Source: an uncultured delta proteobacterium
GTDB lineage: Bacteria; Desulfobacterota; WTBG01; CAIYCZ01
Direction: 5' to 3'
DNA length: 64,000 nt
Assembly: GCA_963803975.1 (NCBI GenBank)
Contig: CAWDOY010000003.1
Span: 112,446 to 176,445, forward strand
The notes below the pieces were generated by a model, which made no database searches, had not been told where the DNA came from, and worked only from the letters and a program-made list of their open reading frames with translations. Position 1 is the first letter of the stretch. Each line of letters begins with the position of its first letter. Shown one piece after another: positions 40,771 to 59,117 of the stretch. A program made the position numbers and the translations under genes.

Positions 40771-40780
40771 GGAATACGCC

Positions 40781-43196
40781 ATGAACGAAGCCGAAACCCG
40801 AGCCGAACATATCGACCCTGCGCTGAAAGCGGCGGGCTGGGGCGTGGTTGAAGGCAGCCGCATCCGGCGCGAGTATCCGATCACGCTGGGCCGCATCGAA
40901 GGCCACGGCAAGCGCGGCAAGGCGCTGACCGCCGATTATGTGCTGGAGTACCGCAACACCAAGCTGGCGGTGGTCGAGGCCAAGGCGTGGGACAAACCGC
41001 TGACCGAAGGCGTGGGGCAGGCCAAGGACTACGCCGGCAAGCTGGCCATCCGCTTCACCTATGCCACCAACGGCCAGGGCATCTACGGCATCGACATGGA
41101 GACCGGCGCCGAGGGCGAACTGGCGCAGTATCCGACGCCGGATGAACTGTGGAACCGGACCTTTGCCACGCAGAACGCCTGGCGCGACCGCTTCGCCGCC
41201 GTGCCGTTCGAGGACAAGGGCGGCTACTTCCAGGGCCGCTACTATCAGGACATCGCCATCGAGCGGGTGCTGGAGGCCATCGCCGACGGACAAGCAGCGC
41301 ATCCTGCTGACGCTGGCCACCGGCACGGGCAAGACCTTCATCGCCTTCCAGATCGCCTGGAAGCTGTTCCACAGCCGCTGGAACCTGACCGACTGGAAGA
41401 CGGAGGGCGAACCAACGCGCCGGCCGCGCATCCTGTTCCTGGCCGACCGCAACATTCTGGCCGACCAGGCATACAACGCCTTTTCCGCCTTTCCCGAAGA
41501 CGCCCTGGTGCGCATCGCCCCGGACGACATCACGCAAGAAGGGCAAGGTGCCGAAGAACGGCAGCATCTTCTTCACCATCTTCCAGACCTTCATGAGCGG
41601 GCCGCCCAAGGATGGCCAGCCATCGCCCTATTTCGGCGAGTATCCGCCGGACTTCTTCGACTTCATCGTCATCGACGAGTGCCACCGCGGCGGCGCCAAC
41701 GACGAGAGCAACTGGCGCGGCATCCTGGACTACTTCGCCCCTGCCGTGCAGCTCGGCCTGACCGCCACGCCCAAGCGCAAGGACAACGTGGACACCTACG
41801 CCTATTTCGGCGAGCCGGTCTACATCTACTCGCTGAAGGACGGCATCAACGACGGCTTTCTCACGCCGTTCCGGGTGAAGCAGATTTCCACGACGCTGGA
41901 CGAGTACGTCTATACGCCCGACGACACGGTGGTCGAGGGCGAGATCGAGGCGGGCAAGCGGTACGAGGAACCCGACTTCAACAAGATCATCGAGATCAAG
42001 GAGCGGGAGAAGAAGCGGGTCGAAATCTTCATGTCGCAGATCGACCAGCGGGAGAAGACGCTGGTCTTCTGCGCCACCCAGGACCATGCGCTGGCGGTGC
42101 GCGACCTCATCAACCAGATGAAGACCAGCACCGACCCGAACTACTGCCAGCGGGTGACGGCCAACGACGGCGCGCTGGGCGAACAGCACCTGCGGGACTT
42201 CCAGGACAACGAGAAGACCATCCCGACCATCCTGACCACCTCGCAGAAGCTCTCGACCGGCGTGGATGCCCGCAATATCCGCAACATCGTGCTGATGCGC
42301 CCGATCAACTCGATGATCGAGTTCAAGCAGATCATCGGGCGCGGCACACGGCTCTACGACGGCAAGGACTACTTCACGATCTACGATTTCGTGAAGGCGC
42401 ACCATCATTTCAGCGATCCGGAGTGGGATGGCGAGCCGCTTGAGCCGGAAACTGTCCAAAATGCGGCTGCTATCCCTGCCAATGCGAAAAGCCACCGCCG
42501 AAACCTTGTCCGGTCTGCGGCAAGCAGCCTTGCGAATGCGTCGAAAGAACCGTGCCCGAACTGCGGCAAGCGTCCGTGCGTGTGCAAGAAGAAAGCGAAG
42601 GTGAAGCTCGCCGACGGCAAGGAACGCACCATCCAGCACATGATGGTGACGAGCTTCTGGCACCCCGACGGCACGCCGATGTCGGCGCAGCAGTTCATGG
42701 AAGTGCTCTTCGGCAAGCTGCCGGAGTTCTTCAAGGACGAAGAGGAACTGCGCGCCCTCTGGAGCGCGCCGGATACGCGCAAGAAGCTGCTGGAGGGACT
42801 GGCCGAAAAGGGCTTCGGCAAAGATCAACTGGCCGAGATGCAGAAGATCATCGACGCCGAGAAGAGCGACCTGTTCGACGTGCTGGCCCATGTGGCCTAT
42901 GCCCTGCCGCCGCTCACCCGTGAGGAACGGGCCGCAAAGGCCAAGGTCATCATCAGCACAGCATTTCAACAGCAAGCAGCAGGTCTTCCTCGACTTCGTG
43001 CTGTCGCATTACGTGAGCGTCGGCGTGGAGGAACTCGACCAGGACAAAGCTGACACCGCTGCTGCGGCTCAAGTATCACGACTCCATTGCCGATGCCGTG
43101 GCCGACCTGGGCAAGCCGGAGGAGATTGGCAAGGTGTTCGCCGGCTTCCAGAAGTACCTCTATCAGCAGCAAGCGGCAGTAACGCAAGAAAAATAA
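40781..43196 (+). pseudogene. hsdR: type I restriction enzyme R subunit, at least 4 frameshifts
   Basis: N-terminus ETRAEHIDPALKAAGW; helicase motifs [24 protein letters not shown]; read across ORFs 40781/41061/41548/42890. Confidence 0.75.
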
Positions 43197-43259
43197 GTTA
43201 AATACGGGCTAACAAGGCACCGTACACACAGGGCAACAGATACTATTCGTGGAGTATAC

Positions 43260-44327
43260 ATGGTGAGTGATAAACTGCTGAAAAAAACAATTTCGGCACA
43301 GGGCGAAGTTTTACTCTATCAGACCGAAGACGGCGCAACTCGAATTGAAGTACGAATGGAGGGTGAAACCGTCTGGATGACGCAGGGAACCATGGCGGAA
43401 CTGTATCAGAACCACGCCGCAAAATATCACGCTTCATTTAAAAGCCATTTATGAGGAGGGCGAACTGGAGGAAGGAGCAACTTGTAAGGAATTCTTACAA
43501 GTTCAAAATGAAGGGGCGCGGAAGGTGACCCGGTCACGAAAATTCTACAGTCTGCCTGCTATTCTTGCAGTCGGCTATCGTGTGCGCTCACACCGGGGAA
43601 CACAGTTCCGGCAATGGGCAACTGAACGGCTTACTGAATATCTCGTCAAGGGCTTTAACCTTGATGACGAGCGATTTAAAAGAGCTGGCGGCGGCGGATA
43701 TTTCGATGAGCTGCTCGCCCGCATCCGCGACATACGCTCATCAGAGAAGGTTTTCTGGCGCAAGGTGCTTGATATTTACGCCACGAGCATTGACTATGAC
43801 TCTCCACGGAAATGTCACAGAAATTCTTTGCCACAGTGCAGAACAAAATGCACTGGGCTGCCCACGGCCACACCGCAGCGGAGGTAATCGCCGCGCGTGT
43901 CGATTCTGAAAAACCCAGCATGGGACTCACCAGCTGGACTGGCGCTCATCCCAACAAAGATGATGTGAGCATTGCGAAGAACTATCTCGACGAAAAGGAA
44001 CTCGATGCGCTCAATCGCATTGTGACACTGTATTTGGAATTTGCAGAACTTCAGGCATTGAACCGTAAACCCATGTATATGGGCGAATGGATCGCCAAGC
44101 TCGACGAATTTCTACGAATAAGTGAGCGCGATATTCTTACTCATGCAGGCAAGGTGAGCCATGAGAACGCTCTACTGAAAGCTGAAACTGAATATCAGAA
44201 GTTCGAGCAGAAGCGTCTGGCTGAACCGACACAGGCGGAGAAGGATTTTGAGGAAGCCGTGAAGAAACTGAGGAAGCTGAAAGCACCCAGCAGGGGAGCA
44301 AAAAAGCCAAAAGGAAAGATGTCATGA
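43260..44327 (+). pseudogene. RhuM-family protein, full length but in three frames
   Basis: VLLYQTEDGATRIEVRMEGETVWMTQ; VGYRVRSHRGTQFRQWATERLTEYLVKGF; FATVQNKMHWAAHGHTAAEVI. Confidence 0.65.
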
Positions 44328-44449: not shown

Positions 44450-45692
44450 ATGCCTTTAAAATCCTACGAGCACTGCTGTTCTTCCTGTATTGCTCTTGCT
44501 AATCTCGGAAAGATTGAGGGAGTGATACCCATCCTCCATGGACCGCAGGCCTGCGCCTTCGGCAATCAGATCGGCTCCATGTTCTGCCGGCCATCCCGGT
44601 TGCTGACCATTGGCACCACACTTAAAAAGAGTGAAGTTATTTTTGGCGGTGAAGATAAGCTCAAAGAACAGATTGTTAATGTCTATAAACAATACAAGCC
44701 CAAAATTATCGTGATTATTAACACCTGTGTTCCGCAGCTCATAGGCGAAGATTTAAAGGGAGTAATCATCGAGCTGAAGGAAGAACTGCCGGAGCTGAAG
44801 GTGACCTATTGTGAGACCGGATTCAATCAGCCAAAATCTACCCCACTGGGCAATGACGTATCATGGCGGGCGATTATTGACGTGCTGGAGCCCAGGGATA
44901 TGATCAAGGGCTCAGTGGGAATACTGGGGAGGGCAGGGCAGGATGCGGACAGCATGGGCTGTCTTGACGTCTCTGTTGCGGGAAGCGGGTATTACCACGT
45001 TTGCTTTTCCTGCCGGGCACCTTGAAGAAATGGAGAAGATTGTCCAGGCTGAGTATCTGTTCCCCATTCATTTAGTCCCCTATCTGACCAGCAAACGGAT
45101 TAATGAACGGTTTGGCTCAAAGACTGTTTATATTGAACTGCCGGTGGGGATTGCCGGGACTACCAATTTTCTACGCGGAGTTGCCGACCTGACAGGCAGC
45201 ATTAAACTTAAAGAAATTGCAGACCGTGAAGAAAAAAGATCATTGCCGCGATTAGAGAAAATAAGGGAGCAATTCAGACAGAAGCCAACAAAGGTTCTGT
45301 TAGTATCCGGGCCTGCCAATGAAACATCAATTGGGAAAATACTGGCTGAATTCGGAGCAGAAGTGATTATTGTGCCATCCATGCGCAATGCCTTTGCCCG
45401 CCAGGAGCAGGACATTTTGCAAAAGCGCTATGGCTCCCGCATTATCTTCCATGAAAATGACTTTAACAAAGTTTCAGACCTTGTAGGTTTATATAAGCCG
45501 GATGTTGTGTTTGGTGATTTCCAGGCACGCGTTGAGGTTATACGAAACCTTATCCCCTGTCTCATCAACGAGAACTATTTGAATGAATACGGCTATGATT
45601 ATGCCCTGGACTTTGGTGAAAACTTTTTTGAGAACTTGAAGCAGCCATTTTTTACCGAGTGGAAGGATATTATGCGTCAATACGCAGGATAG
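44450..45692 (+). CDS. nitrogenase component 1-type oxidoreductase, NifD/NifE/BchN-like (copy 1), one frameshift near 44960
   Basis: ALANLGKIEGVIPILHGPQACAFG; the second ORF 44943..45692 continues the fold. Confidence 0.7.
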
Positions 45693-45810: not shown

Positions 45811-47542
45811 ATGTCTGCAACTGACAGAAGAGATTTTATTGCTCCAGAAATAAAGATGAAGGAGATTCATAAGCCATCTTCTTTTGAAGGCGCTTTATGG
45901 GCCGCGCAGGGGATAACAGATGCCCGGGTGATTTATCATGCACCTCCCGGCTGCTATCTTATGCAGCACATGAACTCCATCTGCAATGAATGGCATCCTG
46001 AGATGTACAGCACGCTCATATCATACGCTGAAGTTATGCAGGGCACCGGGAAAAAGCTGGAGGAGGTGCTGGAAAAGGTTGTCGCTGAAAAGCCGCAGGC
46101 AATTATTATAATAACCTCACCGGTGATTGAGATTACCGGCGATGACGTTCAGGGTGCAGTCGCGGCTGCAGGATTCGAGAAGACGGTAATAATAAGACCA
46201 ACCCTGGGCGGCACACTCGCTGATGGAAAGGAAAAGGCATTTATCGCTCTGACCGGACTGATGAAGACAGACGAAGAGAAGCGGAAAAAGTCCGTCAATT
46301 TAATAGGGCCGACCTATAATACGTTCAACTGGCGGGCGGATGTATTTGAACTTAAAAGAATGCTCTCTGCCATCGGTATCTGCGTCAACGCTGTTTTAAC
46401 AGCTGACTGCACGGTTGATGAAATTATACATGCACCCCGGGCTGAACTAAATATATGCATGTATCCCTATGATTGCGGGATAGAATTTGCCAAGAAAATG
46501 CAGGAGCAGTTCAGCATACCGTATATTGCAAGCCATATTCCCCTTGGCTTCCGAGAATCAGCTGCATGGCTTGATGAAATTGCCCGGTTCTTTCTGATTG
46601 ATGCAAAGCAGTATATTGCACAGGAAATAAAAAGTGCCCGGGACTTTGTCACAACGCTTTTGGTAACCAACACCTTCTTTGAAGCAACGGCTGCCCTCTC
46701 AACTGACAACTGTGATACCTACAGCGTCGGGATAAGCAGTTTTCTGAAAAGAGAACTCGGCATGGATGTTTGCATGGCGTCGGTAGCAACTGATGAGGCA
46801 TTGGAAAAAGTGTCCCAGGTTTGCTCTACGGTACTATTAAATCCAAGCATTGATGAGAAAAAGTCGGTAATGCTGGAGAAATCCCCGACCATTATTCTCG
46901 GGAATTACTATGACCTCAAGCTTGCAACTGACCTGGGATTCAAGAACTTCCTGTTTGCGGATATCCCGCTTATCGGATACATCTTTTCAGAAACTACTCC
47001 ATTCATGGGCTTCATGGGTGCTAAGCATCTGGTGCAGGCCATGGGCAATGAGATTTATACCAAGATATTTATTGAGACCAAGGGGGAAATGGAAGGCGCC
47101 ATATCAGCAGGGGAGGTGCCGTGGGAACTCGATGCGGAGCGGGCGCTGGGAAGGATTGCTGAGATGCTCCCTCATTTTATACGTTCAATCGCGCTGAAGA
47201 AAATTCATCAAGTGGCAGATGAGACAGCCGTGCAAAAAAAATCTTCGGTCACGCTGGGGATCCTGCAGGAGGTCGCCACAAAATATACCCCGACGAGGTT
47301 TAAGTCAAAATATGCCACCATCTTTACGGATATAAAAGATACCCCGCTTGTTCCAGATGGCGCTGAGCAGACCGTGTTTCAGATGGAGTGGGATCAGGGC
47401 TGCTAAAGAGATGCTTGAGATGGTGCCCGATGAGTTCGTGGCAAAGGCGGTGAGGGAAACAGAAGGCTATGCCCGCGAGAACAATTATGGTCAAATAACT
47501 ACAGCGGTTGTCGAGGAATACCGGAAGAAGCTCGGCTTTTGA
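45811..47542 (+). CDS. nitrogenase component 1-type oxidoreductase, NifK/NifN/BchB-like (copy 1) with two C-terminal PCP_red-like domains; frameshift near 47395
   Basis: VIYHAPPGCY; PWELDAERALGRIAEMLPHFIRSIALKK; the last domain WSGIRAAKEMLEMVPDEFVAKAVRETEGYARENNYGQITTAVV is out of frame (ORF 47348..47542). Confidence 0.7.
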
Positions 47543-47555: not shown

Positions 47556-48429
47556 CTATTCTTCGTCAAACCGCTTATCCCTCAGACTGTCTACAAACTG
47601 CGGGGTAATGACAGAAATTCCCTTTTCTTTTGCTGCATCAACAACCACTTCTATCATTCCATTCAAAAAGATAGCGGGCACTTTCAAAAGCCGTGCGCAG
47701 GCATCTTCCTGCCATGTGATGTTCGGGTCAAATCGGGAACAGGCATACTTAACGGTTGCCATGGTGTTGCCTTTTCCCCGCGGGATCGGGATAGCATAGG
47801 GCGGTGAGTGCCTGGCAAACCAGAACCGTACATTATCCCGGTATCCATAATCAACGGGCAGGGCAGGGAACCCCTGTCCCTTGAATAAACAATCCCGCCA
47901 TTTTTTCTGCATGATGATTTTGTCAATGCGCAGCAGAAAGTGGTATTCCATGCGCTCTTTATTATGCTGCAGCGTAAAACTCTCATCCCAGCTGCACAAA
48001 AAGACCTGAACCGCCTCTTTCACAATATCAGGATGCGTCGCGCAAACCTGGCGGTTGCGCGGCTTGCCATACGGGGTTGCCGGCAGCAGGGTAAAGATGC
48101 TTCTTTTCATTTTCTCCTCAGTGGTCTCACCGGGATAACCAAGCATAACGCAGTTCTTCATATATTTCTTCGTGTCAGGAATATAATTAAGGGAGCAAAC
48201 TTTCGTGCGTATGATGTTAGCGGCGGTATTGCTGCTGCCGCGTGCGATAAGCATCATGGCGTGCTGCTGGTCTCCCGCGATAATATGGGGAAAGCAGAGT
48301 GAATACGGTCCCAGGTTGATCATCCCGGACTCTGAATAAGGTGCTCACCAGTATCACCGGCATCGGAATAAAACTCGACGTCTGATAAAAGTTATCTACA
48401 ATTCGTATTTCGGTAAAATCCTGAGACAT
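47556..48429 (-). CDS. hypothetical protein with C-terminal PCP_red-like domain; one frameshift
   Basis: TWQEDACARLLKVPAIFLNGMIEVVVDAAKEKGISVIT; ORFs 47556..48323 and 48217..48429 overlap. Confidence 0.4.
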
Positions 48430-48656: not shown

Positions 48657-49157
48657 ATGAAGACAGGAAAGAAAATAATGAAAAATAAAAATGAAAACAT
48701 TAATTTAAAGGAAATTGAGGAGTTCGGAGATCATCTGCGCAATTGGAGAAATTTTTTCACTGAGTTTTTTAATAACGTAATAAAAGACAGCGGCAAAATA
48801 TCAGGCTTTGATTTCAGTATGTCACAGTTTAAGACCATGGGGGCCTTTCGGGAAGATACGGTCTATACCATGGGCGAGTTAAGTAAAAATGCTTCTGTTA
48901 CCATGCCGACCATGACTGAAATGATTGATAATCTGGAGCGGGAAGGAATTGCCGAGCGGATAAGGGATTCTCAGGATCGGAGGGTAGTAAAGGTACGTTT
49001 AACTGCAAAAGGAAAAAAGCTGCGCAAGAAATTCATGGATAAACGAAGGAATGAACTTAAAAACATACTCAGCAATCTGAGTAAAGAAGACCGGGGTGAG
49101 CTTATGAATGCGCTTGCCAAAGCGTACAGCGTACTGAAGAAAAACAGCACGGTATAA
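48657..49157 (+). CDS. MarR-family transcriptional regulator
   Basis: Winged HTH TMGELSKNASVTMPTMTEMIDNLEREGIAERIRDSQDRRVVKVRLTAKG. Confidence 0.7.
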   Translation: MKTGKKIMKNKNENINLKEIEEFGDHLRNWRNFFTEFFNNVIKDSGKISGFDFSMSQFKTMGAFREDTVYTMGELSKNASVTMPTMTEMIDNLEREGIAERIRDSQDRRVVKVRLTAKGKKLRKKFMDKRRNELKNILSNLSKEDRGELMNALAKAYSVLKKNSTV

Positions 49158-49192: not shown

Positions 49193-50438
49193 ATGCTTAA
49201 AAGCTATGAGCACTGCTGTTCTTCAATGCAGGCTTTGGCAACACTGGGGAAGGTGGAGGGAATCATTCCTTTGCTGCATGGACCGCAGCCATGCGCCTAT
49301 CAGATTCAGATAGGAACCATGACCTGCCGTCCATCACGCCTTCTTACCGCTGGTACTTTGATTAAGAAATCAGAGGTGGTCTTCGGCGGCGAAGAAAATT
49401 TAAAAAATCAAATAATCAATATGTACCGCCAGTATAAGCCAAAAATAATCGTAATCATCAATACGTGTCTTCCCCAGCTCATCGGCGAGGATATAAAAGG
49501 GGTAATCAGTGAAATAGAACTGGAACTGCCTGATTTAAAAGTGACCTATATTGACAGTGGATTCAATTTCCCTAAATGTATGCCTCTGGGAAACGATGTG
49601 GCGTGGGTATCGATCGTGAGACTGCTTGAAATAAAAGAGAAGGTAAAGGGATCAATTGGTCTGGTTGGAAGGTCAGGGCAGGATGCCGGAGCTTTTACAT
49701 CATTTGACACGTTTTTAAAGCGGGCAGGGATTACGGTATTCCCGTTTCCCGCTCCGCATCTGAATGAAATGGAAAAAATTGCATGTGCAGAAATTATATT
49801 CCCAGTCCATGTAGTACCGTTCCTGACCTGCAAAGAGATGAGCGAACGCTTCGGGTCAAGGGTAGAATATATTGAAATTCCTGCAGGTGTGCAGGGCACT
49901 ACAAATTTCCTGCGGGGGGTTGCTGATATCCTGAAAAACCAGAAGCTGCATGATCTGGTGGATACAGCAGGAGCAGGAAATGCGGCCCCGCATAGAAGCT
50001 ATAAAAGAGCGCTTTGCCAAAAACCCGATTAAAGTGATGTTTGCATTCGGGCCGGCAAGTGAGTTCGGGCTGAGCAAGATTATGGCTGACTTCGGAGCTG
50101 AGGTCATAATGATTCCTTCAATGAAAAATAAGTTCGCACAGCAGGAGAAAGAGCTGCAGAAGAAGCGATACAACGTGACTATTATTGAGGAAGATTTTGA
50201 TACCCTGGAGGATCTCTATGATCAGTACCGGCCGGATGCAGTGTTTTGTGAAACGCAGGGCCGGGTAGAACTTACCTCGCGGCTTATTCCAACATTTTGC
50301 AACATGACTTATTTAACTGCTTACGGATATGACTTTGCTCTGGATATGGGGGAAAAGTTCCATGAGAGTATGAAGCTCGATGTATTATCATCCTGGAGAG
50401 ATGTGGTTCAGAGATACGGAGGCGATCTCAATGCGTAG
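49193..50438 (+). CDS. nitrogenase component 1-type oxidoreductase, NifD/BchN-like (copy 2), one frameshift near 49990
   Basis: ALATLGKVEGIIPLLHGPQPCAY; paralog of 44450..45692. Confidence 0.7.
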
Positions 50439-52194
50439 TACTGAAGGCAAGGCAATGAAGCAGCTGGAACTGGCAGGCGCCCGCGAGCTGAAGATGAAGG
50501 AGATTCATAAGCCTTCAGCGTTTGAGGGGGCTTTGTGGACGGCTCTCGGTATAAAAGATGCGCGGGTTATTTACCACGCACCTCCCGGCTGCTACATCAG
50601 TCAGCATATGGATGCGCTGATGCATGAGTATCCGTTTGAATTATATACGACGTCACTTTCATATGCCAATGTTATGCAGGGTGCAGAGAACCAGCTCGAA
50701 GCAGTGTTGAGAAAAACCCTGGCACGAAAACCAAAACCGAAACTGGTAATCATTGTTACTTCTCCCAGTGTTGAAATAACCGGCGATGATGTGGAGGGGG
50801 TTGTAGAAAAAGTCGGAGATAAAAACTGTGTCGTAATAAGGCCCCCGATTGGCGGAAGCCTGCACGAGGGAAGGGAAAAGGCGTTAATAAGTCTGATAGA
50901 CATAATGGTTCCAGCTGTTGAAAAGATTGCTAAAACAGTTAATTTTATTGGTCCGACTTTTGATACCTTTAACTGGAGAGCTGACGCATTTGAGCTAAAA
51001 AGAATGCTTTCACGTATCGGCATCAAGGTTAATGCGGTACTGACCGGTGGATCACGAGTGAATGAAATTATTAACGCACCACGTGCTTTATTAAACCTCT
51101 GCTTGTATCCCTATGACTGCGGTATTGAGACGGCGCAGATCATGGAGAAGAAATTCGGCATTCCGTATCTTGCCGGCCATGTACCAATTGGTTTTAAAGA
51201 ATCTGCTGTCTGGCTTGAAGAAATTGCTGGCTTTTTCAAGGTGGACGCACGGGAATATCTTAAAGAAGAGACCGAAATGATATTTGAACTAATCCAGTCC
51301 TTTATGGTGCTGCCTATTACGTTTGAATGCTCTGCTGCTCTGTCGCTGGATAATAACGATACCTATGCAGTGGGCATAAGTCAATTTCTGAAAAAGGAAT
51401 TGGGAATGGAGCTCTCCATGGTGGCTGTAGGCAGTGATGCTGCAGGGGAAAAAGTAAAAGAAGTCTGCAGTAATGTTCTGGTAGAACCTACCATTGATGA
51501 AAAGAAGGAGCAGTTTATCGAAAAGGGCCCGATGATGATTATGGGCAACTTTTATGATTTAAAGATAGCCAAAGAACTTGGTTTTAATAACTTCCTCTTC
51601 GCTGATATTCCAACGCTGGGATACATTGCCACAGAGGCAAGCCCCTACATGGGTTTCCAGGGGGCAAGGAATTTGATTCAGCAGACGGGCAATCAGATTT
51701 ATATCAATTTTCTCATTGAGACCAAGGGCGGCATGGAAGAAGCCATCTCTTTGGGAGAAATTCCCTGGGACCTTGATGCACGGGAAGCGTTTGTAAAAGT
51801 CGCAGCCGTAATTCCGCATTTTATTAAAGCTACCGCCATGAGAAAGCTGCAGAAAAAAGCAGAAGAGCTTGCAGTTAAAAATGGCACGGGAATTACTATG
51901 GATATAATTAGAACGGTAACAGAACAGTACACGCCAACCAGGTTTAAATCAAAATTTTTATCTGCATTGCAGGGCGGTCAAGACGGAGAGCAACAGGGGG
52001 AATTTTCTGCAGAACTAACATTTACCATGGAATGGGATGCACCAGCCAGGGAATTGATGGAAAAGATTCCGCAGGAAGTTAAAACAATGGCAGTTGCAGG
52101 TACTGAGGAATTTGCAAGAGAGAAAGGCTACAAAAAAATAACAGTCGGCGTAGTGAATGAGTTCAAAGAAGAGGCCGGCATGGGGAAAAATTAA
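50380..52194 (+). CDS. nitrogenase component 1-type oxidoreductase, NifK/BchB-like (copy 2) with two C-terminal PCP_red-like domains, intact
   Basis: VIYHAPPGCYISQHM; IPWDLDAREAFVKVAAVIPHFIKATAMRKL; MEWDAPARELMEKIPQEVKTMAVAGTEEFAREKGYKKITVGVV. Confidence 0.75.
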   Translation: MYYHPGEMWFRDTEAISMRSTEGKAMKQLELAGARELKMKEIHKPSAFEGALWTALGIKDARVIYHAPPGCYISQHMDALMHEYPFELYTTSLSYANVMQGAENQLEAVLRKTLARKPKPKLVIIVTSPSVEITGDDVEGVVEKVGDKNCVVIRPPIGGSLHEGREKALISLIDIMVPAVEKIAKTVNFIGPTFDTFNWRADAFELKRMLSRIGIKVNAVLTGGSRVNEIINAPRALLNLCLYPYDCGIETAQIMEKKFGIPYLAGHVPIGFKESAVWLEEIAGFFKVDAREYLKEETEMIFELIQSFMVLPITFECSAALSLDNNDTYAVGISQFLKKELGMELSMVAVGSDAAGEKVKEVCSNVLVEPTIDEKKEQFIEKGPMMIMGNFYDLKIAKELGFNNFLFADIPTLGYIATEASPYMGFQGARNLIQQTGNQIYINFLIETKGGMEEAISLGEIPWDLDAREAFVKVAAVIPHFIKATAMRKLQKKAEELAVKNGTGITMDIIRTVTEQYTPTRFKSKFLSALQGGQDGEQQGEFSAELTFTMEWDAPARELMEKIPQEVKTMAVAGTEEFAREKGYKKITVGVVNEFKEEAGMGKN

Positions 52195-52299
52195 ACGAAA
52201 TGTTCTTAACAGAAAGGAGGCAAACATTTACGCAATAATAGCAGAAAATGAAAGCCAGAGAAAATTTAAAACTATGAAAAAATATGGAGGAGAATTGTT

Positions 52300-53239
52300 A
52301 TGAAAAAAACATTGTCAGTACTGTTTGCTTTTATATTTATGGTTAGTTCCGCCTCTATACTATTTGCTTCAGAAGCAAAAAAGGCAGCAACTGCAGGCGG
52401 CAAAGAAAAGATAGGTATTCTTATGGTTGCCCATGGAGAGCCGGAAACGTTTGATGCTCCGGTATGGGAAAAAGGCTTAAAACTGATGTTCAAAGAGTTT
52501 AAGGACTCCGGCATGGAAGTACCTACTGATGAAGCATTTCCGACAATCCTTGAAGAGATTAAGCATAAATATGAGGTTATGGGAGGTAAATCACGCCATG
52601 CCGAAATGTCACGATTGCAGTGCAAGCTTGTCTGCACAGAAGATGCCCGGCTATGATTTCCGTCTTGGCTTTATGGAGTTTATGGGGCCTGAATTTTCCG
52701 AAGTGGCAGAAGGGATGATTAAGGATGGAATTAAAAAGATAGTCTTTCTGCACATGCTGCAGACGGATTCCACACACACCGGAGAAATAAACAACAAGAT
52801 AAAAGAGATGAAGCTTGAGGAGCGGGGGATAAAATACGCAATCAGCAAGCCACTCTTCTACAGACCTGAACCTACGCAGCTCGTTATCGATAAAATTTTG
52901 AAAGCTACCGGGAATACGCCGTATGAGCAGGTCGGGGTTGTGCTTGCATCACACGGAGAACCTGAGGCCTGGGTTAAAGCGAATCTGTTAAATACAAAAT
53001 GCAAAGAGCAGGAGATTGCATTCTGTAACTGCGTAAAAAAGGGCTTAATTGAGAGAGGCTTTGTTTGGGAAAATATTACCCAGGGATTTAATGAATTCCA
53101 AAAACCGGAAATGCCCGAGGCGGTAGAGCTTATGGCTGAACGGAAAGCAAAGAAAGTGGTTGTCATCCCCAGCTTTGGCACTACTGAAGGAATGCATATC
53201 ACCTACGATATACCGACCAAAGCACGGACAGCTTGGTAG
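52300..53239 (+). CDS. secreted two-domain class II chelatase-fold protein (CbiX/CbiK/SirB-like); one frameshift
   Basis: Signal peptide; GILMVAHGEPE and VGVVLASHGEPE half-domains; VVVIPSFGTTEGMHITYDIP. Confidence 0.5.
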
Positions 53240-53339
53240 ATCCTTCAATAGAACTGGTTTATACCGGAGGATGGAACGATAACCCGCTTCTTATAAAAGC
53301 ATGGGTTGAGCTTGCAAAAGAGGCTTTGAAAAGGTTGTA

Positions 53340-53540
53340 GTGACTAACTATTTTAAAAGGATACTAAGCATGGCAAAAATAGATACAACTAAGTGTGTAG
53401 GATGCGGCGGGTGCATTGACCTCTGTCCAGTGATTGCGATTGCTATGATACAGGATGTGGTGACTGTAGATCAGGATATCTGTACAAAATGCGGCATCTG
53501 CATAAAAGTCTGTCCCGTGCGTGCACCTTACGAAGATTAG
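53340..53540 (+). CDS. 2[4Fe-4S] ferredoxin
   Basis: CVGCGGCIDLCP and CTKCGICIKVCP. Confidence 0.8.
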   Translation: MTNYFKRILSMAKIDTTKCVGCGGCIDLCPVIAIAMIQDVVTVDQDICTKCGICIKVCPVRAPYED

Positions 53541-53577: not shown

Positions 53578-54909
53578 ATGGCAAAAAAATATGATCTCGT
53601 GATAGTGGGCGCGGGCCCTGCAGGATTAATGGCTGGAAGAATCGCTGCTGAGAACGGCTTGAAGGTTGTCATTTTAGAGAGGAAAACAGATATCTGCAAG
53701 GTGAGAAGATTTGACGGCGGCGTGTTTGCTATCAATGAATACACCTTTGGCCAGCTCGCTTTGTATAACGAACGGGATAAGAGGGTCACTTTTCCTGTTG
53801 GCGGATTTTCCACTCGCTATGACGGCCCGTACACCAATGTTTTTGGCTTCCACCTTTATTCGCCGGGAGGAAAAAGGCTGCGGTTTGGTGACTGGACGAA
53901 ACTGAAGGACGATCCAATAAAAAACCGGGTAGCCATAGCGCTCAATAAAGAAATACTGTTAAAAAGCATGCTTGATGATTGTCTGGCAACGAGTGTTGAG
54001 GTGTTACCCAATGTAAATGTCACTGCCGTGAAAACCGGCGATAACCGGGTTACGGTAACCGGCAACGGCGAGGAGTATGAAGCACCGTTTCTGATAGCGG
54101 CAGATGGTTCTAATTCGAGGATTGCACGGCTTGCCGGTTTCAACAAAGAACGGGAGTTTTTTGCTACCTCGCGTCACATCGGTTATGAGGTTGAGGGAAT
54201 GGACTATGATGAATTAAACGGGTTTATCATAGCTCTCACCAAACATGGCTTCTACAGCATACTCCCTTATTTTGAAAAAGGGGTAAATCACATCGGGCAT
54301 CTTACCCATGACCCGTCAGTAGACCTGCATGCAACCATGCAATGGTTCATCAAGGAATCGCCGGTCTTTTCATCCTGGTTTAAAAAGGCCAAGGTGCGCG
54401 AAACAGGACTTACCGGATGTGTTGTGAATGTCTATAAGGCACTGGAAGACCCGTTTAAAGATAATGTGATACTGGTGTCTGATGCTGCCTGGATACAGGA
54501 GGTGAGCATTCCCTCGGCAATGTGTTTTGGCTGGAAGGCGGCAAATGCTGTTACGCTGGCTTTGCATGATGGAAAACCAAACCGTGAAGGAGTGCAAAGC
54601 TATCTTGATTGGTATGGCATTAATTTTTACCAGCCGCACGGCAACAGAAAAATGGTTGCAATTGAAATGCAGAAGTTTCTTGCAACCGAAGACCTTGATT
54701 ATCTGGCAGAGCTGCCGGGGAAGGTCTTTCGCCAGACCATGGATTTCCACTATCTGTTCCATATGCTCGGCGAGATATATGGCGGAGACGGGATGATAAA
54801 AATATCAGAAGAGCGTCCGGATATCATGGAAAAGCTTATTGATGCGCGGGGAAGTATGGCAGAAGCATCTGAGGAAAGACGCAAGATGGGTTTTCCCGGG
54901 AAAAAATAA
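53578..54909 (+). CDS. FAD-dependent oxidoreductase, geranylgeranyl reductase family
   Basis: YDLVIVGAGPAGLMAGRIAAENGLKVVILERK; ~440 aa; cognate ferredoxin directly upstream. Confidence 0.7.
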   Translation: MAKKYDLVIVGAGPAGLMAGRIAAENGLKVVILERKTDICKVRRFDGGVFAINEYTFGQLALYNERDKRVTFPVGGFSTRYDGPYTNVFGFHLYSPGGKRLRFGDWTKLKDDPIKNRVAIALNKEILLKSMLDDCLATSVEVLPNVNVTAVKTGDNRVTVTGNGEEYEAPFLIAADGSNSRIARLAGFNKEREFFATSRHIGYEVEGMDYDELNGFIIALTKHGFYSILPYFEKGVNHIGHLTHDPSVDLHATMQWFIKESPVFSSWFKKAKVRETGLTGCVVNVYKALEDPFKDNVILVSDAAWIQEVSIPSAMCFGWKAANAVTLALHDGKPNREGVQSYLDWYGINFYQPHGNRKMVAIEMQKFLATEDLDYLAELPGKVFRQTMDFHYLFHMLGEIYGGDGMIKISEERPDIMEKLIDARGSMAEASEERRKMGFPGKK

Positions 54910-54927
54910 TAAACAAAGGAGAAGAAC

Positions 54928-55832: not shown

Positions 55833-57272
55833 ATGAAAATTCTTAAAATAGTCCTACTATGTATAGTTGTTCTTGTTATCGCAGGGTATGGATTATACAA
55901 GTATAAAAACCTACCACAAAAACCCGATTATTATGAGTTCTATAAGAATCAGGATACCGTGCCTGAAGGGAAGATAGGGGTTCTGGTGGCCGGCTTGATC
56001 ATGCCGGAAAAGATCAGCCCGGTGTTTTTCAATAATGTAGCGAAAAAAATCTTTAAGACGATCGTTCCCTGGCCGGCCCGCAATTTTGTTACAGCAGATA
56101 AAGGGGTCGCTCTGCTTGATCCGGTTACGTTCCACTCTCATGAATCTTTTACGCCGACCAGTCTTATTGACCCTGATGGTAGCGACCGTGACATAGACGG
56201 AATGCCCTATATCGAGAAGTATAAGCAGGGACTGGTGAAATGGGTTCCCCCATCATCCATGCTCTATCTTGATCACGGCTATTTTCTCTACACCGGACGC
56301 AAGGGTGGCCAGCCAACTATTTGCGGGAAAATAATAAATAAATCCCGCATCTGGTATCACAATAAAGGCAGCCTCCAGCATGATCTTCCCCACTGGAAGC
56401 AGACCTTTAAGGTAATTGATGGTGCACATGAAAAGCTGAAGGAAAAATATGGAAATATTGAGTTCCGGGCTGAATGTAATATGTTTTATTATGAGCTGCG
56501 CGAAAAGCTCTATGAACTGCTCGATGCAGGATGCACTACGCTCGTGCTCAGCTCGCCTCTTCCCATGTACTCGCACTTTGAAGAATTTAACTCAGGTTTT
56601 CGCCACTGCTTTGAGTTTATTGAGGAGTGGGAAAAAGAACACCCCGGTAAGAAAATTAAGGTCATCATGGCGCCGCCCATGGGGCTCTATCAGCCCTATC
56701 GAAAGGCGTTTTTAGAAATGCTGAAAGACCGATTGGATACTTTGCCTAAAGATGCCAGCATTACGGTAGTGGTAAGTGTTCACGGCATGCCCTGGGATCT
56801 TTTCACATGGGAAGCATGGATACAGCTTGCTCCACCCTGGCGCGACAAGCTGTTTGAAGAAATCAAGGAGATGGTGGATTCATATAAATTTAAAAAGACT
56901 AATGTGGTAGCAGCACAGGATGAGTTTGCAGACCCGATCTGGGACCCAAAACAAAAATATCTTTCAACCAACCGCGCCTACTGGAATGCAATCAAGGAAG
57001 GATATGATTATGCGATTAATATCCCGATAGAATTTTATGGCGAAAACTCAGATACGATGTTTCACCATGCACTGAAAAACTATCACGGGTTTGATCAGTA
57101 TGATTTGTATAAGCCGATTGATTATCCTGACTGGTCGGTTCCTTTAACCAGAGAATTTGTACAAGGAAAAACCCGCATAATATATAATGGAGTGCCGGTA
57201 GGCAAATATCAAAAGTACGTAATTGAAGCATTTTACCAATCAATTGACTCCATTTTATCTAAGAAAAAATAA
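55833..57272 (+). CDS. membrane-anchored ferrochelatase-like (class II chelatase fold) protein
   Basis: N-terminal TM helix; KIGVLVAGLIMPEK and ITVVVSVHGMPWD resemble HemH signatures. Confidence 0.35.
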   Translation: MKILKIVLLCIVVLVIAGYGLYKYKNLPQKPDYYEFYKNQDTVPEGKIGVLVAGLIMPEKISPVFFNNVAKKIFKTIVPWPARNFVTADKGVALLDPVTFHSHESFTPTSLIDPDGSDRDIDGMPYIEKYKQGLVKWVPPSSMLYLDHGYFLYTGRKGGQPTICGKIINKSRIWYHNKGSLQHDLPHWKQTFKVIDGAHEKLKEKYGNIEFRAECNMFYYELREKLYELLDAGCTTLVLSSPLPMYSHFEEFNSGFRHCFEFIEEWEKEHPGKKIKVIMAPPMGLYQPYRKAFLEMLKDRLDTLPKDASITVVVSVHGMPWDLFTWEAWIQLAPPWRDKLFEEIKEMVDSYKFKKTNVVAAQDEFADPIWDPKQKYLSTNRAYWNAIKEGYDYAINIPIEFYGENSDTMFHHALKNYHGFDQYDLYKPIDYPDWSVPLTREFVQGKTRIIYNGVPVGKYQKYVIEAFYQSIDSILSKKK

Positions 57273-57407
57273 TTTGTTATTTGCCTGACTCGCAAGCAGG
57301 TTCAGACCTTGCCGCATAAGGATGGGTCTGAACCTGCTTGGAAAATTCAATCTGCAACACATAATATATCAACCAGCACTAAATGGGTCTTAACGGTGGA
57401 GAAATTA

Positions 57408-57995
57408 ATGGACATTTTAGCAATCTGTGGAAGTCCCAGAAAACATAAAACTACTCACAGCGTGCTGGAGGCGGTACTGTCTGGAGCAGGCAGGCCATAT
57501 GAAATACTGTGGCCTGCTTTTATGAAGATTGGCCACTGCATAAGCTGTCAAAAGTGTAAGTACAAAACACCTGGCGAATGCTGGCAGGACGATGACATGA
57601 AAGTGGCCATCGAAAAAATGTTTGCAGCCAGAGCGCTTATAATAGCATCTCCCACTTATTTTGGTAATGTACCAGGCCCCTTAAAGAACTTTATCGATAG
57701 AACCATCCCTACCTGCTATACCGGCAAGGGAGACACTTGGATGGGAGCAGAGAACCACGGGAAACGGCCTTTTAAGGGGCAACTCGGCATGATTGTTGTC
57801 GTGTCGGGTGGTGCTGACCAGGAGAAAACAGCAGCTAATCTGCGCCTGGTATTTGATTATTATGAATATGCTGTGATTGGAGAATTTGCCGAGAGCATGG
57901 GTGGGATTATTGTCAGCAAACAAGAATACCCGGATATCTATACCAGGCTTTTTGCTCTTGGCAAAATACTTGATGAAGCCCTGAAAACAAGGTAA
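57408..57995 (+). CDS. iron-sulfur flavoprotein (Isf)/NADPH-dependent FMN reductase family
   Basis: MDILAICGSPRK plus compact CISCQKCKYKTPGEC motif. Confidence 0.65.
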   Translation: MDILAICGSPRKHKTTHSVLEAVLSGAGRPYEILWPAFMKIGHCISCQKCKYKTPGECWQDDDMKVAIEKMFAARALIIASPTYFGNVPGPLKNFIDRTIPTCYTGKGDTWMGAENHGKRPFKGQLGMIVVVSGGADQEKTAANLRLVFDYYEYAVIGEFAESMGGIIVSKQEYPDIYTRLFALGKILDEALKTR

Positions 57996-58004: not shown

Positions 58005-59117
58005 ATGACAATAGAAGGGATAAATTCCAAAACAGGGATAATCATGATTGGCCATGGAGAGCCGGAAGTCTTTGAAGAAGAACTGTGGGCTGAAGCGCTG
58101 CATGAAATGTTTGAGGAGTTAAAGAGAACCGGTATCGAAGCTCCTTCTGATGAAGCCATTCCCCTGATGCTGCCCATAATAGAGGGAAAATATGCAGCCA
58201 TAGGGGGCAGATCAAGACATAATGAGATCATTGGCAAGCAAAGCGAACTAATAGCCCGGACGTTGCATGAACACGTAGTCAGTTATGGATTCAATGAATT
58301 CACCAGCCCGCATTTTACGGCCGTTACCGAGCAGATGATACGTGAAGGAATAACCAGGATGGTGTTTGTTCCCATGCTGATGACAGATTCCTCGCATACG
58401 CAGGAGATAAAAAATAAAATTGAATGCATGAATCTGCAAGAACAGGGTGTTACCTGGGTTATGAGTAAGCCACTCTTTTATAGACCGGAACCAATACAAC
58501 TGGTAATAAATAAAATTATGCGAGCTGCGGGAAACATTCCGCCAGATAAAACAGGCATACTACTCGTTTCCCATGGAGAACCGGATCAGTGGGCTTTATC
58601 GTCCACTATACATACCAAATGCAATGAGCAGGAGAAAGCGTTTGCTTTGAGTGTAAAAAAGGGGCTTATTGAGAGAGGCTTCCCAGGGGAGAATATCGTG
58701 CGGGCATTTAATGAATTCACCCATCCTGAAATAGCAGAAGCGGCTGAAGGACTGGCGCATAAAAAAGTCAAAAAGATTATTGCCGCAGCCACCTTTGGCA
58801 ATACTGACTGTATCCATGTAAACTATGACATACCGGCAAAACTAATAGAATCTATTGATAACGCAGCCGTAGAGATTGTTTGTCTTGATGGGTGGAATGA
58901 AGATCCTCTGCTGATTACCGCATATTGCGAACTGATCAAGGAATCGCTGCTACTGCTATCTGAAAACCAGATTGAAGGTTGCTACCTGTCGAAGGGGGGT
59001 AGCAGCGTCTGCAGTCAGAATGCAAACAATCATTACAGAGCAATAATAAAGCGTCTGGCTGCTGCTCGCATAGGGGCACATGTCTCTTTATCCCTGACCA
59101 TAGAGCCGTACGACTAA
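58005..59117 (+). CDS. two-domain class II chelatase-fold protein (paralog of 52300..53239) with extra C-terminal domain
   Basis: GIIMIGHGEPE and GILLVSHGEPD; alignable over ~300 aa to the 52300 protein. Confidence 0.5.
   Translation: MTIEGINSKTGIIMIGHGEPEVFEEELWAEALHEMFEELKRTGIEAPSDEAIPLMLPIIEGKYAAIGGRSRHNEIIGKQSELIARTLHEHVVSYGFNEFTSPHFTAVTEQMIREGITRMVFVPMLMTDSSHTQEIKNKIECMNLQEQGVTWVMSKPLFYRPEPIQLVINKIMRAAGNIPPDKTGILLVSHGEPDQWALSSTIHTKCNEQEKAFALSVKKGLIERGFPGENIVRAFNEFTHPEIAEAAEGLAHKKVKKIIAAATFGNTDCIHVNYDIPAKLIESIDNAAVEIVCLDGWNEDPLLITAYCELIKESLLLLSENQIEGCYLSKGGSSVCSQNANNHYRAIIKRLAAARIGAHVSLSLTIEPYD

Follow-up and report, generated by a model that had tools for sequence, protein, structure and literature searches.

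According to excerpts of a 2026 review (PMC13474568), finding the functions of the remaining nitrogenase-like (NFL) systems is among the greatest challenges of the field. Of the closest described systems, DPOR and COR differ at the cluster site of the B subunit, where the same excerpts give Asp as the ligand in BchB and Cys in BchZ. In BchB the substrate pocket is reported to be covered by a long helix (residues 398-420), which lies N-terminal of the PCP_red domain (PMC12022308, PMC4071322). Most solved DPOR structures model BchB for only ~418-431 of its 525-536 residues, the C-terminal region being largely missing, and we found no established function for PCP_red in the DPOR literature, the original structure papers (PMC3568340, PMC2930732) lying outside that coverage. 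A further system, Group VI (NflHDK; Elusimicrobia, Gracilibacteria and 'Myxococcales'), has been delimited by NifH phylogeny as sister to Group V; excerpts of Meheust et al. 2020 (bioRxiv 10.1101/765248) and of the review (PMC13474568) describe several copies per genome, simple Fe-S clusters, the absence of NifB and nearby radical-SAM genes (some of them B12-binding), and propose tetrapyrrole reduction. The literature on PCP_red, on nitrogenase-like genes in deltaproteobacteria and on anaerobic chlorophyll degradation yielded nothing on a tandem-PCP_red family.

In the 64-kb window, by which we mean the whole stretch of DNA analysed, two nitrogenase-like gene pairs (N1-B1 and N2-B2) flank a flavin-reductase-like gene, whose stop codon lies 13 bp from that of the convergent B1, and a MarR-family regulator (Table 1). 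N1, N2, B1 and B2 belong to the nitrogenase component-1 superfamily, with Oxidored_nitro (PF00148) scores of 182-227 bits and Foldseek E-values of 2e-22 to 1e-19 for the B2 model against AnfK, BchB, VnfK and MarK chains; searched with the full B2 model, Foldseek returned the generic nitrogenase fold only, and no information on the tail. The reading that we prefer, with a confidence slightly better than even, is that the two pairs are paralogous modules of an uncharacterised nitrogenase-like clade of Thermodesulfobacteriota, driven by NifH-like proteins and reducing a tetrapyrrole, in which the PCP_red copies serve as mobile modules.

Table 1. Genes and domains of the nitrogenase-like locus, in positions of the window.
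Feature	Position	Strand	Evidence and remarks
N1, nitrogenase-like alpha-type (BchN/NifE-like) subunit, module 1	44450..45692	+	Oxidored_nitro 191 bits (Pfam, repaired protein)
N1, split into two frames	near 44966		single-base insertion vs L007
B1, nitrogenase-like beta-type subunit, module 1	45811..47542	+	577 aa repaired; Oxidored_nitro 220 bits and two PCP_red stretches
B1, frame break	near 47399-47401		single-base insertion vs L007
B1 d1, proximal PCP_red-like domain	47113..47325	+	PF08369 18.6 bits, E 1.9e-3
B1 d2, distal PCP_red domain	47374..47539	+	PF08369 30.0 bits, E 5.3e-7 (repaired segment); frame A to 47400, frame B from 47399
Flavin-reductase-like split-barrel protein with C-terminal PCP_red	47556..48429	-	290 aa repaired; single-base insertion near 48337
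Third PCP_red-like domain, C-terminus of the flavin-reductase-like protein	47571..47723	-	PF08369 20.6 bits, E 4.6e-4
MarR-family regulator	48657..49157	+	Pfam MarR E 2.2e-8
N2, alpha-type subunit, module 2	49193..50438	+	Oxidored_nitro 182 bits; single-base insertion near 49964 vs L007
B2, beta-type subunit, module 2	50455..52194	+	579 aa, intact; Oxidored_nitro 227 bits and two PCP_red stretches
B2 d1, proximal PCP_red-like domain	51757..51969	+	PF08369 18.3 bits
B2 d2, distal PCP_red domain	52018..52182	+	PF08369 38.9 bits, E 9e-10
CbiX/ferrochelatase-like protein, signal-peptide-like N-terminal segment	52300..53239	+	Pfam CbiX E 1e-16; two frames, split near 52600-52650
FAD-dependent oxidoreductase, FAD_binding_3/Pyr_redox type	53578..54909	+	Pfam; 3' of the B2 orthologue in L001, L033, L039, L041
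Ferrochelatase-like protein, N-terminal hydrophobic anchor	55833..57272	+	Pfam Ferrochelatase 26.3 bits, barely below the cut-off of 27
NADPH-dependent FMN reductase family protein	57309..57995	+	Pfam FMN_red E 4.8e-24
Cytoplasmic class II chelatase homologue (CbiX/ferrochelatase)	58005..59117	+	Pfam CbiX E 1.4e-16, Ferrochelatase E 1.4e-15

The sequence-only reading had placed two PCP_red-type domains at the end of each B-like protein (47090-47542 and 51740-52194), where BchB has one. In a Pfam scan of the repaired B1 and the intact B2, PF08369 matched two stretches per protein, which at the level of sequence confirms in each an Oxidored_nitro core with two PCP_red domains behind it; whole-protein PCP_red scores of 39.5 bits (B1) and 45 bits (B2) both exceed the gathering score of 32.5 bits, and the spans found for the proximal (d1) and distal (d2) domains agree with the positions proposed. 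Taken singly, B2 d2 passes this score, while both d1 copies, B1 d2 and the third copy described below do not. The distal domain is a canonical PCP_red and the proximal one is divergent, with two 4-residue insertions. The AF2 model of B2 (mean pLDDT 79.6) ends in two separate helical bundles, each after a low-confidence linker (423-432 and 507-519); helices are predicted at 440-452, 455-476 and 482-492 in d1, with an extra helix at 495-508 (pLDDT 62-83), and at 529-536, 540-557 and 564-573 in d2 (pLDDT 81-90). Columns invariant across the family are W438, P454, H455 and T493-P494-T495-F497-K498 in d1, and W527, A531, P539 and E551 in d2. When B2 is aligned with ChlB/BchB the tail is joined through d2 alone, which pairs with ChlB 457-510, and a d1 profile matches BchB at residues 470-525 only. 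BchB thus keeps the single copy attributed to it, matched by d2, and a cryptic second PCP_red in BchB/ChlB was rejected, the d1 profile having recovered nothing but the known C-terminal domain.

At least 120 B2 homologues are 561-596 aa long, and the tandem tail is kept without exception across at least 120 sequence clusters, which come from Thermodesulfobacteriota MAGs. Tandem-tail B subunits are therefore a fixed architecture of a large, uncharacterised clade of nitrogenase-like enzymes in bacteria of the sulfate-reducer type. The two PCP_red domains of the B subunit arose through duplication within their own clade. Unrelated proteins carry arrays of 3-5 PCP_red domains, and such arrays are found fused to universal-stress-protein (Usp) and rubredoxin-like domains. 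The tandem tail had been called unusual, which holds relative to DPOR and COR but not within this clade or beside such arrays, and by itself the tail is a modest architectural variant.

The gene on the opposite strand was claimed to encode a stand-alone third PCP_red protein, antisense between the modules. A further PCP_red does end its product: the C-terminus scores 16.5-20.6 bits against PF08369 (E 4.6e-4 at best), below the 32.5-bit cut-off, and hhalign pairs it with d2 at E 2.6e-10 (probability 97%), the match with d1 being weak (E 4e-3). The protein is not stand-alone, since the first ~235 of its 290 residues form a split barrel and PCP_red occupies the C-terminal ~50 residues, with AF2-predicted helices at 241-249, 252-269 and 276-288. 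The gene does lie on the opposite strand and between the modules; it converges on B1 as a gene of its own and is antisense to nothing. Foldseek with the AF2 model of a 96%-identical homologue (P0121) returned NbaA, 1EJE, flavoredoxins and CobR (E 1e-9 to 1e-7, TMt 0.6-0.7), matches to flavin reductases and flavoredoxins taken together extending to E 1e-6, and the model places the product in the flavin reductase-like split-barrel class (PF01613). In the Pfam scan the window copy has no significant PF01613 match, while a precomputed one is present in about a fifth of the homologues among the matches listed; some homologues carry a precomputed PF08369 match. As a prediction only, d1, d2 and the flavoprotein tail would each fold as a compact three-helix bundle.

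This flavin-reductase-PCP_red family is large (>2,600 homologues, ~287 aa) and lies mostly away from N-B genes. Among 40 of its loci, an OYE-type reductase is found nearby in 13, a Fe_bilin_red gene in 10 and a B-like gene in only 5, so that the pairing of the flavoprotein with a nitrogenase-like enzyme may be local. A tight pairing as a general rule was rejected, as only the closest orthologues (at least 79% identity) and one other locus lie beside N-B.

Scanned for motifs in all six frames, the 64-kb window showed no NifH/BchL-type gene, which counts against the reading that we prefer. A P-loop candidate at 3964-4740 was rejected as Fe-protein partner, being CooC/CbiA-like. In relatives, the putative NifH-like donors are a conserved paralogue pair directly upstream of N-B. 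About 20 of 34 surveyed loci have the gene order MarR, NifH_a, NifH_b, N, B, and these include one in the same MAG as our closest relative (L031 and L007, respectively) and another with a B that shares 87% identity with B2 (L033); a MarR gene adjoins N-B in most related loci. The MAG of the closest relative comes from Lake Pavin. NifH_a and NifH_b each retain the P-loop as well as the two cluster cysteines, and they score 296-311 bits with NifH/CfbC models against 173-209 bits with BchL/BchX. Several MAGs carry 2-3 N-B pairs each.

The window holds three chelatase homologues (Pfam), and orthologues of the class II homologue lie 3' of the FAD oxidoreductase in four related loci (L001, L033, L039, L041). 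Elsewhere, Fe_bilin_red, B12-radical-SAM and NAD_binding_10 genes adjoin paralogous N-B pairs; a B12-radical-SAM gene stands beside N-B in seven surveyed loci (among them L003, L006, L011, L012, L013 and L025), and none is present in the window. As predicted from these related loci, a tetrapyrrole is the likely substrate of the N-B enzyme. The pre-PcyA/BBAG bilin literature makes no mention of nitrogenase-like genes.

Each B subunit has a component-1 fold that passes into a long helix and, beyond a flexible linker, into two PCP_red domains, predicted to have three helices each. Under the preferred reading of two paralogous tetrapyrrole-reducing modules, electrons would be supplied by ATP-dependent NifH-like proteins whose genes lie elsewhere in the genome, and N-B would reduce a tetrapyrrole, both steps being drawn from related loci. 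The PCP_red copies would act as mobile tethered modules that either retain the hydrophobic tetrapyrrole or pass it on, or that dock pathway partners carrying the same domain, which is the weakest step; the flavoprotein with its PCP_red tag and the duplicated tail of B could then belong to a single physical assembly of the pathway. For PCP_red, docking and hand-off are both putative roles. The substrate-docking module named in the sequence-only reading is an overstatement, as the pocket cover reported for BchB is the helix preceding the domain.

A different account sees in PCP_red a general module for protein-protein contacts or for regulation, without any specific tie to tetrapyrroles, the duplication and the flavoprotein copy reflecting coincidental shuffling. 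The Usp and rubredoxin-like fusions fit this account, those with Usp having no obvious tetrapyrrole link, as do the BchB C-terminus left largely unmodelled in most DPOR structures and the substrate contacts ascribed to the helix before PCP_red (PMC12022308). We nevertheless hold it rather doubtful: the three PCP_red-bearing proteins of the locus all stand among chelatase homologues, and the flavoprotein family lies beside Fe_bilin_red genes in a quarter of the loci surveyed. The characterised carriers, BchB/ChlB and presumably BchZ, are tetrapyrrole enzymes.

The sharing of PCP_red between a B subunit and a flavoprotein that elsewhere adjoins bilin reductases gives a testable idea of what the domain does, and tracking PCP_red becomes a route to partner enzymes. 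A bolder version, which we regard as improbable, would make PCP_red a portable tag for docking tetrapyrroles or handing them over, one that joins ATP-driven nitrogenase-like macrocycle reductases (with a NifH_a/NifH_b Fe protein, possibly heterodimeric), flavin-dependent reductases and ferredoxin-dependent bilin-type reductases in the oxygen-independent dismantling or salvage of haem- or chlorophyll-derived porphyrin or chlorin rings in Thermodesulfobacteriota, the chelatase homologues acting on the metal and the B12-radical-SAM enzymes on the ring. Were this hand-off tag to exist, it would point to a nitrogenase-like counterpart, for tetrapyrroles, of ATP-dependent dearomatisation.

Besides the features noted in the sequence-only reading, we observed that d2 of B1 is out of frame as assembled: the protein stops at 47406 (after 'MEWDQGC') and the remainder of d2 continues in a different frame. 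Between 44.4 and 53.2 kb five genes have a disrupted frame, namely N1, B1, N2 and those for the flavin-reductase-like and CbiX-like proteins, and the window's own copy of the cluster could therefore be non-functional. It is unlikely, in our estimation, that the cluster is a decaying pseudogene set in this genome whose tandem domains are relics without current function. The five disrupted genes support that possibility, and the four insertions mapped against L007 (~44966, ~47400, ~48337 and ~49964) are single bases outside long homopolymers; ten housekeeping genes (5.7-30.8 kb) have retained their full length, which makes uniform sequencing error a doubtful cause, and an IS and restriction-modification island sits just upstream of the N-B cluster. 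Against it, B1 and N2 have a dN/dS of 0.06 relative to L007, B2 and the flavoprotein one of 0.26, low values that make ancient pseudogenisation doubtful; we saw no in-frame stops or larger deletions, and neither B2 nor any of the five genes at 53.5-59.1 kb is disrupted. Beyond the cluster, the window's second half holds further split genes (an AsmA-like gene, hsdM, hsdR, RhuM and a CarboxypepD_reg gene), a pattern just as compatible with a locally poor consensus. The N1, B1, N2 and flavin-reductase genes are intact in relatives 92-94% identical, intact orthologues being seen in L007, L038, L039 and L041. Most likely, the frameshifts are consensus errors or very recent lesions rather than ancient decay.

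With respect to the tail itself, d1 might be an ordinary helical linker before a single C-terminal PCP_red, its W..A..P.F likeness due to chance. This would agree with the single-domain scores of d1 (E about 2e-3), with the two 4-residue gaps needed to align d1 with d2 and with the lower AF2 confidence for d1. It is very unlikely, however: PF08369 matches d1 in 24 of 24 sampled homologues (best E-value 1e-7), hhalign pairs the d1 and d2 profiles at E 6.8e-6 (probability 85%), and a search of 177,635 PDB sequences with the d1 profile gave as top matches, helix for helix, the 63-aa PCP_red NMR entry 2kru_A and BchB C-termini. In agreement with this, the BchZ model runs through d1, residues 21-476 of B1 aligning with positions 7-458 of its 468; the BchZ region aligned with d1 is presumably the PCP_red domain of BchZ. 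The family matches, profile comparisons and best PDB matches mean that d1, like the third copy, is more than a chance resemblance, and as judged from these profiles the PCP_red identity of d1 is well supported despite its sub-threshold score.

At the cluster site, Cys46 of the B-like subunit is invariant in 44 family members and its 'HAPPGC' aligns with 'HAPLGD' of ChlB, which puts Cys46 at the position of the ligand Asp; Cys 8, 9, 34, 45 and 92 of the N-like subunit are invariant in the family. N and B may share an inter-subunit [4Fe-4S] cluster held by N Cys 9/34/92 and B Cys46, and this predicted four-cysteine set would match the pattern proposed for COR. The putative cluster cysteines of N are spaced by 25 and 58 residues, as in BchN. 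We give almost no credence to these being ordinary (bacterio)chlorophyll enzymes (DPOR BchNB or COR BchYZ) with a second PCP_red as minor decoration, a reading favoured by the NCBIfam matches, BchB (TIGR01278; B1 151.1, B2 155.6 bits) being the best and BchZ (TIGR02014; B1 130.2, B2 114.1 bits) following, and by the JGI label 'light-independent protochlorophyllide reductase B subunit' on many homologues, but rejected on score, cluster ligand and gene context, with scores about one third of the equivalog cut-offs (490 and 529), Cys in place of the DPOR-defining cluster Asp, a residue other than Asp paired with the BchB proton donor Asp274 (pairwise alignment), associated Fe proteins closer to NifH/CfbC than to BchL/BchX, no bch/chl genes seen in the window or the annotated related loci, and hosts that are Thermodesulfobacteriota MAGs, several of them with 2-3 N-B pairs each.

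Altogether, three marks set this NFL clade apart, namely the duplicated PCP_red tail on B, the predicted four-Cys cluster site and the paired NifH paralogues of related operons, and they can be placed against each known system in turn. The split-barrel flavin reductases and flavoredoxins (CobR 3CB0, flavoredoxin 2D5M/3BNK, NbaA 4Z85) have the fold seen in the first ~235 residues of the minus-strand protein, but most of the chains matched are ~150-200 residues long, roughly the barrel by itself, with no sign of a PCP_red tail. PDB 2KRU and the Usp fusions with 3-5 copies have the same ~45-residue three-helix module and show that tandem repeats exist, but they lack a nitrogenase-like core. Group VI may resemble the clade in its several copies per genome, radical-SAM neighbours and proposed tetrapyrrole substrate; the higher NifH/CfbC than BchL/BchX scores of NifH_a and NifH_b speak neither for nor against a place in Group VI, its reported hosts differ, and the excerpted descriptions, on which rather than on Group VI sequences the likeness is judged, do not mention PCP_red, paired NifH paralogues, bilin reductases or chelatases. 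COR BchZ (Group V) has Cys at the B-subunit cluster-ligand position, as given in the review excerpts (PMC13474568), and a C-terminal region that directly follows the core in the model and aligns with d1, but its model alignment has no distal second PCP_red and the locus has no equivalog-level BchX or BchY. DPOR BchB/ChlB (Group V; PDB 3AEK, 2XDQ, 2YNM, 8VQI) has the component-1 fold in common with the clade (Foldseek E ~1e-20, TMt ~0.8); beyond domain III it continues with a long helix, then a linker and, at its C-terminus, a PCP_red matching d2, and its partner is likewise an N-type subunit with three cluster cysteines. It differs in having one PCP_red rather than two and Asp36 rather than Cys46 as ligand, and in its BchL-type Fe protein, those of the related loci being NifH/CfbC-like.

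The two beta-type (BchB-like) subunits encoded in the window, B1 and B2, each end in two PCP_red domains, a proximal (d1) and a distal one (d2), as the sequence-only reading had proposed. The Pfam model PF08369 matches two stretches in each protein, and d2 scanned alone scores 30.0 and 38.9 bits, the gathering score being 32.5 bits. Scanned in the same way, d1 (18.6 and 18.3 bits, E ~2e-3) and a third copy, the tail of the neighbouring flavoprotein (20.6 bits, E 4.6e-4), fall below this score, so that independent support was required. When sub-alignments taken from 120 homologues were compared profile against profile, d1 matched d2 over 44 columns (E 6.8e-6, probability 85%; two 4-residue insertions in d1), the third copy matched d2 (E 2.6e-10, probability 97%), and it also matched d1 (E 4e-3). 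The homologue alignment shows invariant columns in both d1 and d2. PF08369 was matched by 24/24 sampled family d1 sequences (best E-value 1e-7), and the best matches of the d1 profile in all PDB sequences were 2kru_A, a 63-residue PCP_red NMR structure (PDB), and BchB C-termini, aligned helix for helix. Finally, in the AF2 model of B2 (mean pLDDT 79.6) the core and a long helix (400-424) are separated by a low-confidence linker from a d1 bundle of three helices plus one extra (440-508), and a second low-confidence linker (507-519) leads to a three-helix bundle corresponding to d2 (529-573).

In order to place the two copies, B1 and B2 were compared with known B/Z subunits. B2 aligns to ChlB and BchB via d2 only (ChlB 457-510), and d2 is the counterpart of the PCP_red copy of BchB. 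The BchZ NCBIfam model runs unbroken from the core through d1 (B1 21-476 to model 7-458 of 468); d1 thus occupies the place of the C-terminal region of BchZ, which we take to be its PCP_red domain. Since the d1 profile also matches a single site in BchB, these alignments indicate that, of the nitrogenase-like B/Z subunits compared, only those of this clade carry tandem PCP_red. To that extent the tail is unusual, as had been claimed, but it is neither a local feature, with at least 120 B homologues listed (561-596 aa, 49-95% identity), nor the only PCP_red array. One divergent, N-terminally truncated B relative (P0248) apparently stops after a d1-type copy. With the B2 tail as query, an exhaustive search recovered proteins with three to five tandem copies, joined to universal-stress-protein domains, joined to a rubredoxin-like domain or free of other domains, which makes PCP_red a widely reused small module. 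The tandem tail is an architectural variant of a known domain that is shared throughout the clade, and it is carried by an uncharacterised nitrogenase-like enzyme.

The third copy had been described as a stand-alone protein encoded antisense; instead, its gene is convergent with B1, and a split-barrel domain precedes the PCP_red tail. Once a frameshift near 48337 is repaired the protein has 290 residues, and its more than 2,600 homologues (~287 aa) are often labelled flavin reductase by their sources, some with precomputed PF01613 and/or PF08369 matches. The AF2 model of a 96%-identical homologue (P0121) has a beta-barrel and, C-terminal to it, three helices, and Foldseek matches it to split-barrel flavin reductases, flavoredoxins and the corrin reductase CobR (E 1e-9 to 1e-7). 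Labels, model and matches together make this a two-domain, flavoprotein-like enzyme. Among 40 metagenomic loci with a homologue, each at least 6 kb, an OYE-type reductase was present in 13, Fe_bilin_red (ferredoxin-dependent bilin reductase) in 10, alpha/beta hydrolases in 10, DUF1329 in 8 and a B-like gene in only 5. The genes that recur beside the homologues encode Fe_bilin_red, a reductase of OYE type (Oxidored_FMN+Pyr_redox_2), alpha/beta hydrolases, an NmrA/NAD_binding_10 protein and outer-membrane proteins (DUF1302/DUF1329); together they appear to form a conserved neighbourhood, so far undescribed, that is related to bilins or other tetrapyrroles.

Features of the N-B cluster (gene layout from the ORF map and three-frame translations; all cluster genes except that of the flavoprotein lie on the plus strand) and of related loci and proteins
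Feature	Position or identifiers	Strand	Remarks
N1	44450-45692	+	Pfam Oxidored_nitro; split
N1 CC pair (residues 8-9)	about 44471-44476
B1	45811-47542	+	Pfam Oxidored_nitro, two PCP_red stretches; split
Flavoprotein	47556-48429	-	split
MarR	48657-49157	+
N2	49193-50438	+	Pfam Oxidored_nitro; split
N2 CC pair (residues 8-9)	about 49214-49219
B2	50455-52194	+	Pfam Oxidored_nitro, two PCP_red stretches
CbiX-like	52300-53239		downstream of B2; split
FAD oxidoreductase	53578-54909		downstream of B2
TPR protein	at 54928		between FAD oxidoreductase and ferrochelatase-like gene; signal-peptide-like or membrane-anchor N-terminal segment
Ferrochelatase-like	55833-57272		downstream of B2
FMN reductase	57309-57995		downstream of B2
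Second chelatase homologue	58005-59117		downstream of B2
Other split genes	31950-33216, 38204-39525, 40781-43053, 43525-44327, 60467-62186
Adjacent NifH_a + NifH_b	L002 6834-8599; L005 4985-6682; L010, L014-L018, L020, L021, L023, L024, L026, L027, L030-L034
DUF169/bilin-reductase loci	L003, L006 (7961-20787), L011, L012		bilin reductase genes with small ferredoxins
Recurrent flavoprotein neighbourhood	L035-L037, L053, L055, L058, L059, L073, L075, L080, L086, L095, L109
Proteins with 3-5 tandem PCP_red	P0252, P0253, P0259, P0264, P0271, P0272, P0274, P0293

The second half of the window contains at least ten genes split between frames, some of them beyond the cluster (31.9-33.2 kb, near 61 kb and in the restriction-modification island). 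Relative to L007, a locus of 94% nucleotide identity, single-base insertions map to ~44966 (N1), ~47399-47401 (B1, cutting d2), ~48337 (flavoprotein) and ~49964 (N2), all four outside long homopolymers. The splits may stem from uneven or locally poor consensus quality, or from recent gene decay; the frameshifted genes are intact in L007, L038, L039 and L041, and ten housekeeping genes at 5.7-30.8 kb (dnaE, fusA, guaA, guaB, leuB and others) are full length. The dN/dS values against L007 (0.06-0.26) show the lineage's genes to be under purifying selection. Upstream of N1, a ~10-kb island (34659-44327; GC 0.56-0.60 vs 0.43-0.47 in the flanks) holds a DDE transposase, DUF2939, type I restriction-modification genes (hsdM, hsdR fragments) and RhuM. 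It separates N1 from an AsmA/DUF748 gene, while in the relative L001 N1 comes directly after an AsmA-like gene; the island probably arrived as a mobile insertion. The accessory genes 3' of B2 also differ from one close relative to another: L039, which is 92% identical, has much shorter spans, the one corresponding to the CbiX-like gene (52191-53578) measuring 0.4 kb vs 1.4 kb and the TPR-to-Chel370 block (54916-59122) 2.6 kb vs 4.2 kb, and in L001 a small ferredoxin gene follows the B2 orthologue instead.

Twenty-eight loci were recovered when representative genomes were scanned; with one exception they come from Thermodesulfobacteriota or 'delta proteobacterium' MAGs, and the nearest (94% identity) is in a Lake Pavin MAG. 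Annotation of all retrieved loci with seed proteins distinguished three types. The commonest (about 20 loci) reads MarR, NifH_a, NifH_b, N, B, where NifH_a and NifH_b are paired NifH-like paralogues. A second combines DUF169, N, B, MarR, a P-type ATPase, two Fe_bilin_red genes, ferredoxins and B12-radical-SAM; its bilin-reductase genes belong to MAGs of anaerobe lineages, and we noted no haem oxygenase in its called genes. The window's type (N, B, opposite-strand flavoprotein, MarR, N, B, FAD oxidoreductase, chelatase) recurs in L001/L008, L007, L039 and L041. Several types occur together in single MAGs (L007 with L031, L008 with L010), and in L033 NifH_a/b precede a B2 orthologue (87% identity) followed by FAD oxidoreductase and chelatase; the Fe protein missing from the window is thus most simply explained as encoded elsewhere in the genome. 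A P-loop ATPase of the CooC/CbiA family at 3964-4740, with a weak Fer4_NifH N-terminal match, lies 40 kb off and is probably unrelated to the cluster. NifH_a and NifH_b keep the P-loop and both [4Fe-4S] cluster cysteines and are closer to NifH and CfbC than to BchL and BchX; each forms its own conserved orthologous series. This suggests a heterodimeric Fe protein; to our knowledge, none is on record in the nitrogenase superfamily.

Most of what makes the locus interesting is the enzyme family and the genes around it, rather than the PCP_red duplication itself. Tetrapyrrole chemistry is the best-supported reading, because the closest characterised relatives reduce tetrapyrroles, three class II chelatase homologues lie within the window, N-B paralogues sit with Fe_bilin_red, an NAD_binding_10/NmrA protein and B12-radical-SAM enzymes, and OYE-type reductase and Fe_bilin_red genes lie near flavoprotein homologues. 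Bilirubin reductase BilR belongs among OYE-type enzymes (PMC10769871), and the resemblance of the OYE-type neighbours to it is only a lead. MarR control and paralogue expansion make us lean towards tetrapyrrole degradation or salvage rather than cofactor synthesis. One chelatase homologue has an N-terminal signal-peptide-like segment and another a membrane anchor (52300-52400 and 55833-55920), so that both, with the TPR protein, may act outside the cytoplasm. In DPOR (BchL-BchN-BchB/ChlB), substrate capping is assigned to the helix preceding PCP_red (PMC12022308, PMC4071322), and we found no established PCP_red function in the accessible literature. Most solved DPOR structures model ~418-431 of 525-536 BchB residues (target lengths), which fits a mobile C-terminal region. 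In the mechanism we favour, d1 and d2 would be tethered modules that hold or pass on a tetrapyrrole, or dock partners with the same domain, of which the PCP_red-tagged flavoprotein would be one.

Oxidored_nitro scores for N1, N2, B1 and B2 are 182-227 bits (Pfam). In NCBIfam, the best models for B1 and B2 are BchB (151-156 bits) and BchZ (114-130 bits), at about one third of the equivalog cut-offs, and those for N1 and N2 are NifE, BchN and NifD, all far under cut-off. Nitrogenase-like groups IV-A to IV-F, V and VI are listed in the accessible text of PMC13474568, where, as in that of bioRxiv 10.1101/765248, Group VI is uncharacterised and 'tetrapyrrole-associated'; we found no description of the tandem-PCP_red N-B clade in the papers searched on nitrogenase-like and bilin-reductase systems. 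Besides three invariant cysteines with BchN-like spacing, the N subunits carry two further invariant ones, Cys8 (in a CC pair with Cys9) and Cys45, so that the Fe-S site may differ from those of DPOR and COR (BchX-BchY-BchZ). For COR, the accessible text of PMC13474568 proposes a four-Cys cluster, and conserved residues point to the same arrangement in the N-B enzymes, whereas DPOR is defined by an Asp ligand from its B subunit ('HAPLGD') at the place where the B-like proteins have the invariant Cys46 ('HAPPGC').
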